DNA of 47,883 nt from Dimargaris cristalligena (GCA_003614675.1 ML002284.1:1-47883); one strand, 5' to 3'; positions 4,301 through 46,964 are shown, counted from the first letter of the stretch. The notes: generated from the letters alone by a model not told the origin. Numbers and translations: made by a program.

Positions 4301-6018
4301 GAGGTAATATTCTAAAGAGGCTCTTGGGAAATGAGGGAGCTCGCTTGTAATGCCCCCTCCTTGCCCTCTGATTATCCATTCTCAGACCTCCTCAACCACA
4401 CTGTACAGGCAGCTATTTTGACCAATGCCTTATGCTATAGCAGGGACTGTTGTCCATCCCCCCTCCCTCCCCAATGCCACCGCTTGGACAATGTCACATA
4501 ATTCGCCCACCATCATCCTAGATCTCCTTACTTGGCTCTATAACCTTTCCATACCGACAGGGTTTTTTCAACCCCTTTTAATTGGCCGACACCCTCTATA
4601 GCTGCAATAGATAATGTCTGTGGGGGTAGATTGTCCACTACCATTTGGAAGCAAAGAAGTTTAGGCGGTGTAAGTTATTTGAGGCCACATGAACCTTCTC
4701 ACCAAGCCAGACCAAGGTTTCCTCCAATCCCCTATCGAGCAGATGGTATGTCGCATTGGTCACCTCGGCTAATGGTGGTAGGCCCGGGCGGATTCCGATT
4801 ATCAAATGGTCTCCCAGCGGAGGTTGAGGATGCGAAAAATAACTGAATTTAAAAAGGATTCTCCAACCTGCTACGCCGAGATTTCACACCCGTCTTCTAT
4901 GATTTCCACTGACTAACCCCTTTCTCGGTAGATGGTATATAATCATGGGTCTCTGTGCTGAAGTTGACTAGGGTCCCATTTTCCCAAGTAGAGTTGGGTG
5001 GGCGCGTGGTTTAGTGCATCTTTCTTCTCAGCCCCCCCCCATACCATGGTCAAAAAGACAAGAAGCTGGGAAGCGAAGCACATGGACGCAACTTGGTGCA
5101 GCTGTATAAGGTGTTATATCGCATGTCAGTGGGAAAGAAATGGTAAAATGTCCTTTGGCCAATAGTGCCGCCATTTGTCTCCGCGAAAAGGGGCTGTGTC
5201 ATACGCCCTGACCGAGCCTTTCCCACAGGTAGCCCATTTAATTGTTACAAAAAATACCGATTTAAGAAAGGCGAGCCTATTTATCTCACCCCCGCATGAT
5301 CCAGAAATTTGGTATTCTGAGGAATTGGGAATATCTACCTTTGGCTAGTCGCAAGCAGGCGTGGGCAATTTCAAGGCTATCGAGCCATTCACTAATGGTA
5401 CCACCTTCGGTAATGTAGGGTATAACTAGGAACACTGCTTGGCCAATGGAGTGAGAAAAACGATGTCCAAATCAGCGATAAACAAGCATTCGAGGGGTTA
5501 GTTCAAAGTCCGCGCCAGGGGCCTTCGGGACTTTCGAATCAAGCCATGGAAGGCCTGTACTGGCTGTAAGATGACCCAGAGGCCTATCAACGCCGAGGGT
5601 TGGTCCAGAAAACCAGCTTTTCATACGCCTGTAGCTTCTTGATGTGATGGGAATAACCCACTTAAACCAGTTTTCGCAATCCAATCCATTCGGTTTACAG
5701 GGGGGAGGGGAGGGTAAAGTATGCCTACTACCAGCTACCTGCAACCAATAATCAATTAGCGGAGGGTTGGTGAAGGCACACGTTAGAGGGAATACCAAGA
5801 GGGAATTACTTGACGTTACTTAGGGCCAACCAGGGTTACACCGAGCGACTTTTAAACACGAAACTGGGCAATGTGCCGCAGATAAATAGTCCATCGGCCG
5901 CCCTTCACTGCAACTCATCACCACTATCTACTGCCCACTCTTCAGACAACCCAATCTGACACCCCCACTACTGTCACCCGCCTTCCCTCTCCTGTTTGTA
6001 TATAAATTCACCAGCAAC

Positions 6019-6195
6019 ATGTCGTCCATTCGTTCAATTCTAGTTAGCTTGGCTATCGCTGCCACTGCCGTACAGGCTCTTCCTGTCATCCAGGCTGACC
6101 AACCCCAGCTTGCCCCCCGCCAGCTAACCGGCGGGAGTTATGACGGGATCTATAATGGATGGTTCAGCACCACCCAGCCCGGTCATTATTGGTAA
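6019..6195 (+). CDS. 58-aa secreted prepropeptide MSSIRSILVSLAIAATAVQALPVIQADQPQLAPRQLTGGSYDGIYNGWFSTTQPGHYW (not in ORF track)
   Basis: AACATG start context. Hydrophobic signal peptide ending VQA|LP, pro-segment ending LAPR, C/T-ending codon bias. C-rich leader with GATAAATA at 5881 and an AT-rich 3' region. Confidence 0.8.
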   Translation: MSSIRSILVSLAIAATAVQALPVIQADQPQLAPRQLTGGSYDGIYNGWFSTTQPGHYW

Positions 6196-6729
6196 ACTCG
6201 CCCCTCACTACTCTCCACCGACACCTCTAATACAGCAATGCTGAGACCAGTTAATAATCCGCGCCCTTCTCCCCACCCCACCCCCTTCGTAACACCTCTC
6301 CAAAGGTTCTCAATTAACCATCGAGTAAAAGATTTGGGTTCTATCTACTCTCGGTAGCCCTGGCTTTTACCTTAGCATCGCGGCTGGTTCGGCGGGCTAA
6401 ATTCAGGGGAAGAGGATATCTACAGTGACCTACCATCGAATTACAGTACTGTCCAGGCATAATATATAGTATTTGCTACTTCCAATAATTATAATTTTTG
6501 AATCATTTGGATTCATATCAACGGGCTCCCCAACCTCCCGAGTCACCGTGCTTACTCTATTTATTACAATCATTATGCTAATAAATATAAAGTTTTATCT
6601 GCATTGGATATTATTAACCGATTGGCAGATGGGAATTGGTGAGAATTAGTGACGGTGTACTTCGGATGGCTTGTGCATAGCCCTTTGGTATACCTCAGAA
6701 CCCAATGCCACTAATCTTGTTCTTAAATA

Positions 6730-6866
6730 TGGGAGAGGTTCAATAAGGCTAAAAACGAAAAATCTATTGGATGAGGAAAATACTGCTGGCTGAAAATGAA
6801 TCACCTACCTATTTTCTCGTATACTTATCATTTAACCCCTTATACGGCTGGGGCCCATTCATGTCA
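6730..6866. mobile_element. Degenerate copy of the ~138-bp MITE-like element
   Basis: TGGGAGAGGTTCAATAAGGCT..AAAATCTATTGGATGAGG..CTGGCTGAAAATGAATCACC..TTATAC aligns by eye to the copy at 9499. Confidence 0.7.
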
Positions 6867-8541: not shown

Positions 8542-9189
8542 ATGCAGCTGCGTGTATCCCCCATTTTTGTCATGGCCATCGTCGGCACGGCAGCTATTCT
8601 GCCCGCTGGGTTGGCTGTACAATCTGTGCCCGTAGCCCACTCCCCACCCGGTAACCTCACCAAGCGTGAACCAGCGGACGCGGCCTACCTTCCCCGGGTG
8701 GTCCGTTCCGCCGAACCCCCGGTTCCTATAGAACGCCGTGAACCCTGTCTCCTCGAACGCCGCCGTCCCCTTCGCCGTCGTCTGGTATCGAAGGCTACAG
8801 TCGACCAACAGGCGAAGCGGGATCTGATCAAGCGCCACTGCCACCATCCCCGGCACGATACCACGTCGGGAAGTTCAACCAGCACTTCGTCTAGTGGTAG
8901 CAACACCGACAATGGGGAAACCACTGAGGAGGAGGATCTAAACGAGACTGAAAAAGTCACGAGCGGGGGATCCGGTAGTATCAATGGCGAAATGCAAACA
9001 CAGGAATCCACCAATTCCAATGAGGTCACCAGTGGAGGTTTTGGCAATACGACGACCGTCGATACTAGCTTACAACTTCAATCAGTTGATACGAAAATGA
9101 TCCTTAGTAACGGCATGGTGTTAATCAATTCATCTGGGTTTTTCGCTAAGGGGACAAAAGAATTCACCACCGAAGACGGCGCCGACTAA
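8542..9189 (+). CDS. Secreted 215-aa precursor with multiple Kex2-type dibasic sites, a His patch and a Ser/Thr/acidic region
   Basis: N-terminal hydrophobic signal; LTKR|EP, IERR|EP, AKR|D, LIKR|HCHHPRH. Intronless; CTATTTAAA TATA-like element near 8329. Confidence 0.8.
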   Translation: MQLRVSPIFVMAIVGTAAILPAGLAVQSVPVAHSPPGNLTKREPADAAYLPRVVRSAEPPVPIERREPCLLERRRPLRRRLVSKATVDQQAKRDLIKRHCHHPRHDTTSGSSTSTSSSGSNTDNGETTEEEDLNETEKVTSGGSGSINGEMQTQESTNSNEVTSGGFGNTTTVDTSLQLQSVDTKMILSNGMVLINSSGFFAKGTKEFTTEDGAD

Positions 9190-9498
9190 ACTTCAACCTA
9201 CTGCATTTGGGGTTTCAAACTCTTAGGCAAATTAAGCCCGATCACCCACTCCAGTCCGACCGTTATATATTCCTACTACCATTTTACCTTGTTAAATTTT
9301 ATTTCCTGCTTATACACAGATTCGGGTGGTCGCTGTTTTACCCATTTTACCTATTATACTACCGGTCGCTGCCATTTACTTACCTAGTCGACTCACCAAT
9401 CTATAATGATCCATCTATAAATACTTATAATATACATTAAAAATATTTACCCGTCAAACCGCATCCCACTTTTTCATTTCCATCCACTAAACGGCATA

Positions 9499-9636
9499 TG
9501 GGAGTAGTTCAACAAGGTTGTATAACGAAAAATCCATTTGATAAGGCAAATACTACTGGTTGAAAATAAACATCCCACCGATTTTCCCATACACATATTG
9601 GTTAAAACCTTATACAACCAAGCTGAACTTCACTCA
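9499..9636. mobile_element. 138-bp MITE-like element with imperfect terminal inverted repeats
   Basis: Left end TGGGAGTAGTTCAACAAGGTTGTATAA, right end TTATACAACCAAGCTGAACTTCACTCA. 137/138 identical to 45337-45474. Flanked as CA-TA-[element]-TA-TG. Confidence 0.85.
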
Positions 9637-11629
9637 TATGTATGTAACGTATATTTGAGATCCAAATGTGTGGTTGTACTGTGGACTATTCATTTGGTTT
9701 AAGCTTAAAAGTGGGTTTTGAAGAACTGGATATGGTGGGTGCGCATGAATAACCTTGGTGAGTAGCTATGGGTCATTTGGATCAGCTAGGATACTACAAC
9801 CTGGTTGGGTTAGCTAGCACCTATCTGCTAAATGTATCAACCTCTAGGGCTGAAAATAGGGAGCGCCGAATTGGGCACGGGGTCGAGTAGATCAGCTGCG
9901 CAAATGCCCGGGCGGAGTATATTACATGGCCCTTCACTGGGGACATACCGTTAACCAATGAATTGGTAGGTATAAAGCACTGCTGTGTATGAAGCAGTCT
10001 GCCGAGTAATGGGCACTAAGATTAGCTCGCTAAAGCCACATTGCGAGCCGGATTGCTTGGCGAACGGCCTTCACCGTTGCAGGCTATTTGTACCAGAATC
10101 CATGTTACCAATTCGGCTATCCCAGTTATTATGCCCTTGTTAAAAGAGCAGACTTGTTGGGGGAAACTGCGTGGCATTTGACGTATTGAAAAGCCAAGCG
10201 TTTTTGAACTTAACCTACCACCAGTGTGGGTCGGAGGAGAGGAGAAGGGGAGGGGGAAGTGGGCCCAACCTGCCAAAAACACGCCTGGAGACTATGGTTG
10301 TAGTATAATTAGGCGAGTGTATTGGTAAGGCTCGACTACCTCTCGAGATAATCTCAATGTAGGTAGTTGGGCGAGACCTTTCGAAGGATTGCCGAGATTG
10401 ACCATCGCAGCGCTTTGTAAAAAAAGGCCTACGTAGACCATTATCCGGTTCCATACAGAAAGAATCCCTAATATTGCTTCCAAAATTAGGGAGGGCAGAT
10501 AGATGAATGTAGTTTTAACCATATTTTACTATCCAGGGCTATATATGTATGTATATTTATATTAAGATTTACCAACCCCTCTCGGGGATTAAATTACCAG
10601 TCACCTGCCTACATGCGAATAGGACGGAAATGCACGCGAGCGCATTCGGCGGACCAGTGGATACGCTGCCCAAGGCTAGGCAACGCCACTACTAATCTAA
10701 TTCACGCATGCATAAAATAGAATCGAGGACCGTTTAGTAAAGCCCGATAAACCATAACAGCGGCACACATACTAACCGAGCGAATAAACCGTCTACAATG
10801 GCGATGATTATCGGATCTGCTCAAAATAGTAGTAGCAATTCGATACCCAACCCATGCTCTGTGACTAAAGGAAAAAAACTCCGGAGAATAGCCTCACTTC
10901 CAACAACCCTTCGTTTATGGAGGCACGGGTGGAAGATTCAAGTGGGAGGTCATCCTGGTCGAGTGGGTAATTGTACACTTTAACCCAACATAGCCATAAT
11001 GAAAAGGCCGGAGATTGTCGGCTGAAGAGGTTCAATGATCGGTAGATCCTGTCAACCCCCCCCCCAATTATGCGTAAAGGGTCCCTCATTGGAGAGAGAG
11101 AGTCCCGCTGGACCCATTCAATTGGGCTGTAAAATAGAGAAATGCGGGGGGGCTGGGACTCAAGAGGATCGTAGATAGTGAGGTCATGCAGGATAAAGAG
11201 GCTGAATGGATAAAGGCAATTGCATGTCACTGGCAGTTAAAATGACTCGGCTGGATATCAGTCCAATGCACAGACAGACACTTTAGGTCGGGAAGTAGTA
11301 GCTAAATCGAATGGCTGGACCTCGCGGAACTTGGACTGGCCGACAAGGTTGACTATCGAGGTGCGTCCACGGGCCATTGCGGGGGCTATAGCCATGGCCA
11401 CCTGCGACACTATTTAAACCTCCCCCCTCCCGCTTACCGCCTGATATGCCATATAAACTGGTTCAATTGGCCCATTCCCCAAACCTCGGCTCACTAACAA
11501 CCCCATCACCACCTACCATCATCCTCGGCCACCCTCTACTCTGTGACCCACTTAGTCCAACGGACCCATTCTACACCACTTATTTTGGCATTAACCATAC
11601 CATTTGATTACATTACCCCCCCCCATAAA

Positions 11630-12178
11630 ATGCGGTGGACTGTCCTTTATACGGCTACCTTGTTAGCTACTGTTGCCCATTCCTCTACAGGGTCACCCAG
11701 CGCCTCCATACCCTTTAATACCAAGCCATCTGCCCCCGGGGTCCCACCACCATCAGAGCCGCTCTCCCGTTCCCCGAGTCTGCACCACCGCCGGTCACCC
11801 CAACTCAGTCGGGAAATGGCCCATCCCCCTTCCAACCCGGTCTCCACCTCGCTACGTAAACGGACTTTAACGCAACCCGCTAACAAGTGGCACTGGAAGG
11901 AGCGCACTGAAAATGATAATAATCACTACTACTACTACTACCACGACCATGCCCATGACCACGAGGACGACGGCGACGACGACAGTGGCACTAGTGAACT
12001 TATCGACCAAGCTACCATTGACCTTCACGCGAACATCACATTAGCAGAAGACGCCCTTGTTCTCCAAGAAACCACGGAGATAGAAGACAAACTTTCTTCC
12101 CTTAAAATATTTTTTGTACGATTTAATACACTGTTTGGCTGGAAAAAGGGGGGGCACGGTGTATTCACGACCGATTAA
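11630..12178 (+). CDS. Secreted 182-aa precursor with dibasic sites and a Tyr/His/Asp-rich tract
   Basis: Likely start AAAATG at 11630 (MRWTVLYTATLLATVAHS signal). LHHRR|S, LRKR|T, HYYYYYHDHAHDHEDDGDDD. CTATTTAAA near 11410. Confidence 0.8.
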   Translation: MRWTVLYTATLLATVAHSSTGSPSASIPFNTKPSAPGVPPPSEPLSRSPSLHHRRSPQLSREMAHPPSNPVSTSLRKRTLTQPANKWHWKERTENDNNHYYYYYHDHAHDHEDDGDDDSGTSELIDQATIDLHANITLAEDALVLQETTEIEDKLSSLKIFFVRFNTLFGWKKGGHGVFTTD

Positions 12179-27901: not shown

Positions 27902-28784
27902 TTATAAAATAGTCTTTTTGGCCGCAGGTAATAGCCGTATATCAATCCGAATGGTAGAGTTTTGTCGAACAGACGTGAAATATTCGTCGTCATCGTCGTC
28001 ATTGTCGCCATCATCAGCCTCAACTTCCATAGCGACATTTGGGTCCTCGCCGGAGCCGGTGGTTTCGAGTGGTTTTTGACAGTCATCGAAGAGAGTGGCG
28101 GTGCCAGTATAACATTGGAGCGTCACCTGGTCGAACAGTTCGGTCTTAATAGCTAATGCTACGCGTAGGGCCTGGGGAATAGCGGCACCAAGTCCGTGGA
28201 CGCTGACGAGATCGTGAGTTTTACTAAACGATGGTAACACGGTAATGTCATTTGTGAACGTATATATATATATATATATATATATGTTATCAGTAGAGGT
28301 TTACAGGAACGGTTATTAGTCAAAAGGAGAAGGAGAATATAGGGTGTAGTTGTTGTTCCCAGGGGATTGGACCAAGAAGCCACTTCTAGCCTGTGGAGTA
28401 GCCCACTTGGATAGCTCGAGTTGTTCCGTTGGGCATATGTACTTACAGTCGATGAGTCAGCAATTGGACACCCCGCTTAACAAGGGGTACGATGGAGCGG
28501 CGACTTTTGGACCCGGTTACGTAAATCTCGTGGGGCTGCAGGGCCGCCCGAATGGGAGCGCGCTTATGGAGGAGAATGCCCTTTTTTGATTGAGCCTTCG
28601 GCTTGGTGGTGGTGGTCTTCTGGGCTACCTGAGTGGCGGCGCGCTTAGAGGGTTCATTGGTTTTCGCTTGGGCCTTCCGCTTGGTGGCGGTGGCGGTGGT
28701 GGTATTCTGGTCCGATTGGGCTGCCGGAACGGGTGGGGCCTGCTTAGGGAGTTTAGGAGTTACATTCGATTGATCCTTCGACAT
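27902..28784 (-). CDS. POP7: RNase P/MRP subunit Pop7/Rpp20 (Alba fold); exons 28784-28447, 28223-27902; about 219 aa
   Basis: HKRAP..HEIYVT..LVKRGVQLL | VSVHGLGAAIPQALRVAL..YTGTATLFDD..RQNSTIRIDI. Phase-2 intron fits. Confidence 0.8.
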
Positions 28785-46715: not shown

Positions 46716-46964
46716 ATGCGTTTCACCTCCTCCGCCGTCACCGTCTGCCTTTTGGGTCTCGTGGCTTTGTCCTTTGCCAATGCCAGTAACCCCGGATCTG
46801 GACCCGATGCCCATACCCCCGGCCATGGCTCTGATATCGGTAACCGCCCCTCCGGTAAAAGCAACACTTCTCCCCACTCTCCTGGCCAAGGCAAGAATAA
46901 GCCTGCTTCAGACCGCAAGGCCGATCCCTCCTCCAAAGACCCTAATGGCCCCAATCGTCATTAA
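46716..46964 (+). CDS. Small secreted Gly/Pro/Ser/Asn-rich protein, 82 aa
   Basis: TCAAAATG start; signal peptide MRFTSSAVTVCLLGLVALSFANA; hydrophilic low-complexity mature part; C-ending codon bias. Confidence 0.85.
   Translation: MRFTSSAVTVCLLGLVALSFANASNPGSGPDAHTPGHGSDIGNRPSGKSNTSPHSPGQGKNKPASDRKADPSSKDPNGPNRH

Follow-up and report, generated by a model that had tools for sequence, protein, structure and literature searches.

Small secreted proteins (SSPs), defined as secreted proteins of <300 aa that carry no catalytic domain of a digestive enzyme, account for a mean share of 46% of the secretomes covered by a survey of 132 zygomycete genomes; the survey reports 47,494 SSPs, of which 26% belong to no orthologous group, and among the SSP orthologous groups two thirds have no Pfam match (PMC9391592). 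Dimargaris cristalligena is a mycoparasitic zygomycete of the Kickxellomycotina (PMC6784888, PMC9866270) and lies outside the Dikarya, the fungi in which Kex2-processed peptides are best known. Orphan SSP genes are to be expected in such a genome, because many zygomycete SSPs lack an orthologous group or a Pfam match according to that survey (PMC9391592). The subject of this analysis is an open reading frame (ORF) of 58 codons at positions 6019-6195 (+) of a stretch of D. cristalligena DNA (GCA_003614675.1 ML002284.1:1-47883), the whole 47,883 nt of which is called the window below. On balance, this frame appears to be a genuine, unannotated and lineage-restricted gene of D. cristalligena that would encode a small secreted pre(pro)peptide, an SSP of the effector type.

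Several described systems invite comparison with such a peptide. Fungal ribosomally made and then post-translationally modified peptides (RiPPs) of the dikaritin type have tailoring genes nearby (DUF3328/UstYa, tyrosinase, oxidases, methyltransferase) and repeated cores flanked by KR. Effectors with a Kex2-processed pro-domain (K2PP) are described as having a KR, RR or LxxR motif in the first half of the protein, with disorder-promoting residues before it; the extended Kex2 motif LxxR has Leu at P4, Pro among the residues tolerated at P2, and Arg at P1 (PMC8528282). The Kex2-processed repeat proteins (KEPs) are described as holding several near-identical peptides between Kex2 sites (PMC6339444).

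Reading frame and predicted product

The frame runs from ATG to TAA with the translation MSSIRSILVSLAIAATAVQALPVIQADQPQLAPRQLTGGSYDGIYNGWFSTTQPGHYW*, and no other in-frame ATG is present upstream of 6019 back to 5890. Its N-terminus has a single Arg (R5), a hydrophobic run free of charges, and small residues in positions -3 and -1 (V-Q-A, before L21), and passes a crude signal-peptide rule of our own; a second hydrophobic stretch is absent from the 58 residues. In a single-sequence AlphaFold2 model, residues 2-18 are helical and the remainder is unstructured (mean predicted local distance difference test score, pLDDT, 61.6). The sole Arg after the putative signal-peptide cleavage site is R34, within L31-A-P-R34. 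The monoisotopic masses are 4261.066 for the 38-mer that would follow signal-peptide removal (residues 21-58) and 2734.209 for the 24-mer that would follow cleavage after R34 (residues 35-58).

The coordinates, length and translation given in the preliminary description of this DNA are all reproduced exactly, the aromatic- and Gly-rich, Cys-free tail that it reported is seen in the sequence, and the Kex2-type site that it proposed fits the extended motif as published, with L31-A-P-R34 in place of LxxR (PMC8528282). Its central proposal, a gene for a small secreted pre-peptide, is upheld to the extent that the frame looks real by its signal-peptide-like start, codon bias, start context, leader and combination of features.

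If the gene is real, transcription would begin behind the TATA-like element at 5881-5889 and pass through the pyrimidine-rich leader, and translation would initiate at CAAC-ATG-TC. Residues 1-20 would direct the chain co-translationally into the endoplasmic reticulum, and signal peptidase would cut after A20, leaving an acidic and unstructured peptide of 38 residues that has no Cys and many Tyr, Trp, Phe and Gly residues. A Kex2-type convertase in the Golgi might then cut after L-A-P-R34 and free the 24-mer; this cleavage is possible but doubtful even given a real gene, and cyclisation of the N-terminal Gln of the 24-mer to pyroglutamate is plausible. The product would act outside the cell as an orphan SSP or effector-type peptide, for example at the parasite-host interface, and orphan SSP or candidate effector is the likeliest class and role for it. 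The peptide is acidic and not amphipathic, and so bears little resemblance to a cationic antimicrobial peptide.

Coding signal and signs of a transcription unit

A codon model was trained on 1809 codons of the known genes of the window, with 55 ORFs of 45-100 aa from non-genic zones as controls. The log-likelihood ratio per codon is +0.179 in frame, a value reached by 2 of the 55 controls; the two alternative frames score -0.144 and -0.215. A score restricted to synonymous codon choice is +0.07 for the candidate (control mean -0.36), and one control reaches that value. The G+C content of the ORF is 0.557, compared with 0.489 and 0.436 in its flanks.

The region around the frame resembles that around other genes of the window. 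A C+T content as high as that of the 119 nt before the ATG occurs in 0.8% of 1770 control windows of equal length, and the stretches of 119 nt that precede five other gene-like ORFs of the window have C+T contents of 0.66-0.76. The pyrimidine-rich block sets in abruptly at about 5900, just behind the TATA-like element, and ends at about 6350, giving way to an AT-rich tract as is found behind other genes. In the 120 nt after the stop codon, C+T is 0.61-0.64 for four of the five other gene-like ORFs and 0.49 for the ADP/ATP carrier gene. The combination C(-4)A(-3)C(-1) of the start context is present at 7 of 702 ATGs (1%) in the non-genic zones.

Four features, namely a signal peptide, the score for synonymous codons, A(-3)/C(-1) and a C+T-rich leader, were scored together in 137 ATG-ORFs of at least 50 aa, one ORF too near the window end having been dropped. 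No feature is present in 96 of these ORFs, one in 31, two in four, three in five and all four in one. The ORFs with at least three are those of the ZIP transporter and the ADP/ATP carrier, the annotated ORF at 8542, the ORFs at 46716 and 28443, and the candidate, which has three of the four features and falls a rounding error short of its own codon threshold for the fourth. Among 41 ORFs of the control zones, 34 have no feature, seven have one, and none has two or more. The feature combination exceeds chance. From intrinsic evidence alone, a real transcription unit carrying the 58-codon frame is likely.

Alternative explanations

Several observations weigh against a genuine gene. ATG-ORFs are abundant in the window, 138 of at least 50 aa and 98 of at least 58 aa, compared with means of 81.6 and 51.1 in 40 simulated Markov-1 sequences of window length; ORF length by itself is not beyond chance, and 2.05 signal-peptide-like ORFs are expected per simulated window (about 2.5% of simulated ORFs). 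Codon usage gives a weak signal: the synonymous score of the candidate stands at the bottom of the range of 0.07-0.78 found in seven of the eight training segments (the eighth has -0.03), and is negative (-0.073) in the signal-peptide part. The thresholds for codon score and C+T were chosen after the values of the candidate had been seen, and the features are interdependent, in that a C-rich strand lifts both the C+T fraction and the number of C-ending codons. AlphaFold2 gives the 58-mer no fold and low confidence outside the helix; LxxR has four residues of which two are fixed, and would occur frequently by chance. The second TATA-like run, TATATAAAT, is too near the ATG to act as a TATA box for it in a fungal promoter and, if used, could give transcripts that begin inside the ORF. 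Database searches found no protein relatives of similar or greater length, and there is no paralogue within the window. The sole match among 1.84 billion representative sequences was to one repeat unit of a bacterial BspA-type leucine-rich repeat protein (E 2.4e-4), judged to be due to chance or composition; the sole metagenome locus was a high-GC bacterial contig with a match off-frame and antisense to its real genes, seeded by the exact scan pattern. The exact 58-mer is absent from the annotated proteins of the database, though the neighbouring protein encoded at 8542 is present there from another assembly. No RNA runs are listed for the locus; contigs of two DNA runs carry the stretch. The ORF counts, the modest codon signal, the lack of a homologue or paralogue and the absence of the 58-mer from the annotated proteins would fit a chance ORF in non-coding DNA, in which the frame, its signal-like start and LAPR arose by accident in C-rich intergenic sequence and from which no protein is made, and so would a selection effect, the preliminary description having picked the best-looking ORF of the window. 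Such an accident is unlikely, though far from negligible: it would have to bring together the TATA-like element, the rare leader and start context, a codon bias seen in one or two of the 55 controls, negative scores in the other two frames and the infrequent signal-like start, in a joint pattern shared with real genes of the window and with none of the 41 control ORFs.

The frame might also be the first exon of a longer spliced gene, its TAA being removed by an intron that begins, for example, with GTAAAC at 6192. A GT does overlap the stop codon and opens a 44-nt GT..AG interval (6192-6235) with CTAAT just before the AG, the pyrimidine-rich block extends beyond the stop to about 6350, and introns occur in genes of the window. 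The final 120 nt of the ORF contain five GT hexamers (GTCATT, GTAAAC, GTTCAG, GTTATG and GTCATC), none of which matches the splice donor consensus GTRNGT, and the KTI12 intron of the window begins with GTAAGT, unlike the donors of the candidate. Hypothetical splices that give at least 75 aa number 65; among the best 25 of these by length, 23 would require introns of about 500-1250 nt and every one of the 25 enters a frame without any family, and the 44-nt splice would merely replace the final W by six residues. A crude census of intron donors was uninformative. Splicing into a longer known protein, which the preliminary description had named as grounds for abandoning the peptide, finds no support, there being no longer database protein that contains the 58-aa sequence and no credible splice, and a first exon is very unlikely. 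Less credible still, and scarcely so, is an origin of residues 27-58 from a gene for an S28 peptidase (presumably Pfam PF05577), namely from the strand-nucleophile-helix segment of an enzyme of the prolyl endoprotease type, the ORF being either a piece of a pseudogene or a new gene built on one. A phmmer search against PDB sequences returned 7wab_A (E 0.084) and 8b57_A, the prolyl endoprotease of Aspergillus niger (E 0.15), in ungapped alignments of residues 27/28-58 (6097-6192, +) over GGSY-x-G...W...PG-x-[FY]-W that end exactly at the last residue of the ORF; with 7wab_A, 12 of 32 positions are shared (Q-x-AP...GGSY-x-G...W...PG-x-[FY]-W). In S28 prolyl endoproteases the GGSYxG motif is taken here to hold the catalytic serine. 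The enzymes have about 485 aa and the candidate matches over 32 residues, which cannot be an enzyme. The E-values are at chance level, the two matched proteins are homologous and hence amount to one observation, a Pfam search of the ORF at E up to 10 lists no Peptidase_S28, no S28 signal, and so no further piece of such a gene, is present in 81 plus-strand frames of at least 22 aa at 3.8-8.5 kb, and the strand before GGSY is polar (PRQLT) where that of both enzymes is hydrophobic. The resemblance of residues 27-58 is probably due to chance. The preliminary description had further proposed a RiPP core or a pheromone-like signal. On such a reading the 24-mer would be a core modified by tailoring enzymes, or a diffusible mating or other signal that a receptor recognises. 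With its signal peptide, its aromatic tail and a Kex2 site that may be used, the candidate does resemble the Kex2-dependent fungal peptides described as class 1 (PMC8528282), and the species is described as unusually rich in secondary metabolism, with 27 nonribosomal peptide synthetase genes (PMC6784888). No tailoring-enzyme domain was found among 88 frames of at least 55 aa in 1-12.6 kb, none of which reaches a Pfam cut-off, or among 31 of the 44 ORFs of at least 120 aa (the other 13 overlap others), which carry housekeeping families or no family. We know of no peptide pheromone system described for zygomycetes. The candidate has no internal repeat and no Pfam MF_alpha match, and its single peptide copy with a single basic site (Arg) is not a KEP as described in PMC6339444. 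A RiPP or pheromone precursor is highly improbable, and the preliminary description stands as to the look of a small secreted pre-peptide gene, the fungus and the Kex2-like motif, and finds no support as to the RiPP core and the pheromone type.

Searches for relatives and strain variation

Pfam gives no family for the 58-aa ORF at E up to 10, MF_alpha and Peptidase_S28 included, and a full-text literature search with a 12-residue string of the peptide returned no paper. The best ESM Atlas score, 0.75 for a cluster of bacterial lipoproteins, is below a useful level, and the NCBIfam match 'choice_anch_X' (E 0.0084, with 15.8 bits where the cut-off is 25) was rejected. Elsewhere in the region, six weak sub-threshold Pfam matches among the 81 small plus-strand frames (E up to 10) were rejected as chance; one of the six is to MF_alpha and lies at 5147-5296 (E 0.2, with 12.4 bits where the cut-off is 19). 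A short orphan ORF could easily have been missed by annotation, since the word 'transcriptome' does not occur in the text of the genome paper of the species in a term search (PMC6784888), and the non-annotation of a 58-aa orphan says little.

A second sample differs from the window at 16 positions and one indel across 8.9 kb. The one difference within the candidate ORF is synonymous (Table 1), which is compatible with constraint and, as a single nucleotide polymorphism, carries almost no weight.

Table 1. Features at and around the candidate gene (positions counted from the first nucleotide of the window).
Feature	Coordinates	Strand	Description
TATA-like element	5881..5889	+	GATAAATAG; about 130 nt before the ATG; putative core-promoter element, judged from sequence
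Pyrimidine-rich leader	5900..6018	+	C+T 0.67, C 0.42; putative 5' untranslated region
Second TATA-like run	5999..6007	+	TATATAAAT; 12-20 nt upstream of the ATG
Start context	6015..6023	+	CAAC-ATG-TC; compare ZIP CACC-ATG-TC and ADP/ATP carrier CATC-ATG-TC
Predicted signal peptide	6019..6078	+	residues 1-20, MSSIRSILVSLAIAATAVQA; putative cleavage after A20; crude rule and AlphaFold2 helix
Strain difference A>G	6072	+	GTA>GTG, Val18, synonymous; the only one in the ORF (run X5, contig record 10)
Possible pro-segment	6079..6120	+	residues 21-34, LPVIQADQPQLAPR; LAPR at its end, a possible Kex2 site judged from sequence
C-terminal 24 residues	6121..6192	+	QLTGGSYDGIYNGWFSTTQPGHYW; 6 aromatic residues, 5 Gly, no Cys, Lys or Arg; isoelectric point 5.1
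Stop codon	6193..6195	+	TAA; overlapped by GTAAAC, a poor splice donor
Pyrimidine-rich 3' flank	6196..6350	+	C+T 0.66 over 6196-6315; putative 3' untranslated region
AT-rich tract	6440..6620	+	G+C 0.20-0.50, mostly 0.20-0.35 (60-nt windows); AATAAA at 6580-6585; putative end of the transcription unit

Genomic surroundings

The ORF at 8542-9186 is identical in 202 of 205 residues (99%) to 'hypothetical protein H4R33_004943 [Dimargaris cristalligena]', and the window is therefore from D. cristalligena or a very close relative, in agreement with the fungal origin assumed in the preliminary description. Beyond 12.7 kb the window carries housekeeping genes, for a NUDIX protein, the ADP/ATP carrier, SPT2, TAFII28, an acidic ribosomal protein, Rpp20, Skp1, KTI12, the ZIP transporter and Atg6. 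No Rfam families or tRNAs were found in the first 12.6 kb. The nearest gene-like ORF downstream of the candidate is 8542-9189 (+), 2.3 kb away; given this distance, the 88 frames without a Pfam family and the absence of Rfam and tRNA matches, the earlier description of the frame as isolated within several kb of non-coding sequence is more or less correct.

The ORF at 8542-9189 (+) is itself an orphan of 215 aa, annotated elsewhere as the hypothetical protein of 205 aa. It is secreted-looking, with several dibasic sites (TKR, ERR, ERRR, LRRR, AKR and IKR) and a Ser/Thr/Gly-rich tail; the annotated model begins at M11, and so omits the positively charged start of the signal-peptide-like N-terminus. 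Five of the 16 strain differences of the 8.9 kb fall within its 648 nt (Poisson P 0.007), and four of the five are non-synonymous (Q2R, A18T, S28P and C100R). This strain variation suggests that the 58-aa ORF may lie in a fast-evolving neighbourhood of secreted proteins.

Three further ORFs of the window have features of orphan genes. The 82-aa ORF at 46716-46964 (+), which has no Pfam or NCBIfam family, combines a signal-peptide-like start (MRFTSSAVTVCLLGLVALSFANA...) with a pyrimidine-rich leader (0.66) and a synonymous-codon score of 0.23, and may be another unannotated small secreted protein. The orphan ORF at 11630-12178 (+), of 182 aa and likewise without Pfam or NCBIfam family, has a hydrophobic N-terminus, a His/Tyr/Asp-rich stretch (HYYYYYHDHAHDHEDDGDDD) and a pyrimidine-rich leader (0.66). 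The 113-aa ORF at 28443-28784 (-) carries three gene-like features out of the four, namely a codon score of 0.23, the context TACC-ATG and a pyrimidine-rich leader (0.66); its sole family match is sub-threshold (Pfam 'New_glue', E 0.005, with 17 bits where the cut-off is 31), and it is probably a further orphan gene amid housekeeping genes.

A short interspersed repeat is also present, with two copies at 6754-6845 and 9524-9615 (92 nt, 77% alike), and also at about 2780-2830 and 1-667. For the bin 9339-10005, contig depths sum to 56,852 in run X5 and 98,144 in run X1, as against about 167 for single-copy sequence in run X5; with a depth so far above single-copy, the repeat must have hundreds of genomic copies. 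Many contig joints and loose ends coincide with its borders.

Comparison with known secreted peptides

A real gene here would enlarge the repertoire of a biotrophic mycoparasite by one short, unannotated secreted peptide, and the locus would be an example of the frames of fewer than 60 aa that are missed by annotation in such genomes. A pyrimidine-rich leader, a CAxC-ATG start, codon bias and a signal peptide could serve to flag other missed frames of this kind, and the peptide is short enough to be synthesised and tried on host fungi. A more ambitious proposal would make it the first ribosomal peptide signal or effector from the Kickxellomycotina, a Kex2-released, possibly pyroglutamyl, Cys-free and Tyr/Trp/Gly-rich 24-mer by which a haustorial mycoparasite senses or manipulates its mucoralean host, encoded by a gene that was perhaps born recently and partly from an S28-like nucleophile fragment; the proposal as a whole is quite improbable.

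The likeness to dikaritin-type RiPPs does not extend to gene architecture, the candidate having a single tail peptide in place of repeated cores, no KR in the 58-mer, and none of the tailoring genes among the frames and larger ORFs scanned. With the KEPs, among which are the ascomycete alpha-pheromone precursors, it shares predicted entry into the secretory pathway, a possible site for a convertase, and a short predicted product that contains Trp and a turn-like P-G centre. Unlike them, it lacks repeats, KR or RR pairs, Ste13-type dipeptides and an MF_alpha match, and has one site, so that the defining feature of the class is missing.

The K2PP effectors (SnTox3, ToxA, SIX1/4/6) resemble the candidate in the order of their parts as described, a signal peptide followed in the candidate by a short stretch with many P, Q, A and D residues, which promote disorder, that ends in LAPR (PMC8528282). 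They are folded proteins of plant-pathogenic Dikarya whose pro-domain aids folding (PMC8528282), whereas the candidate is a zygomycete sequence with a would-be 24-residue product predicted to be unstructured. LAPR ends at residue 34 of the 58 of the precursor, in its second half, and at residue 14 of the 38 that would remain after removal of the signal peptide; unlike the sites of the K2PP effectors, it lies outside the first half of the precursor.

The closest counterparts are the orphan SSPs of zygomycetes. At 58 aa and with no Pfam family at E up to 10, the candidate falls within the size and domain limits of an SSP; it is much shorter than most annotated SSPs, Cys-free and unannotated, and its secretion is predicted by a crude rule and not by the predictors that the survey used. 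As described in the survey, an orphan SSP is a common kind of zygomycete gene and not a new kind of system, which makes the interest of the locus local rather than general (PMC9391592). The candidate shares with these proteins a signal-peptide-like start, a length of <300 aa, the lack of a Pfam family and of any orthologue found, and its origin in a biotrophic mycoparasite (PMC9391592), and it adjoins another orphan, secreted-looking gene (8542-9189) that varies rapidly between strains.

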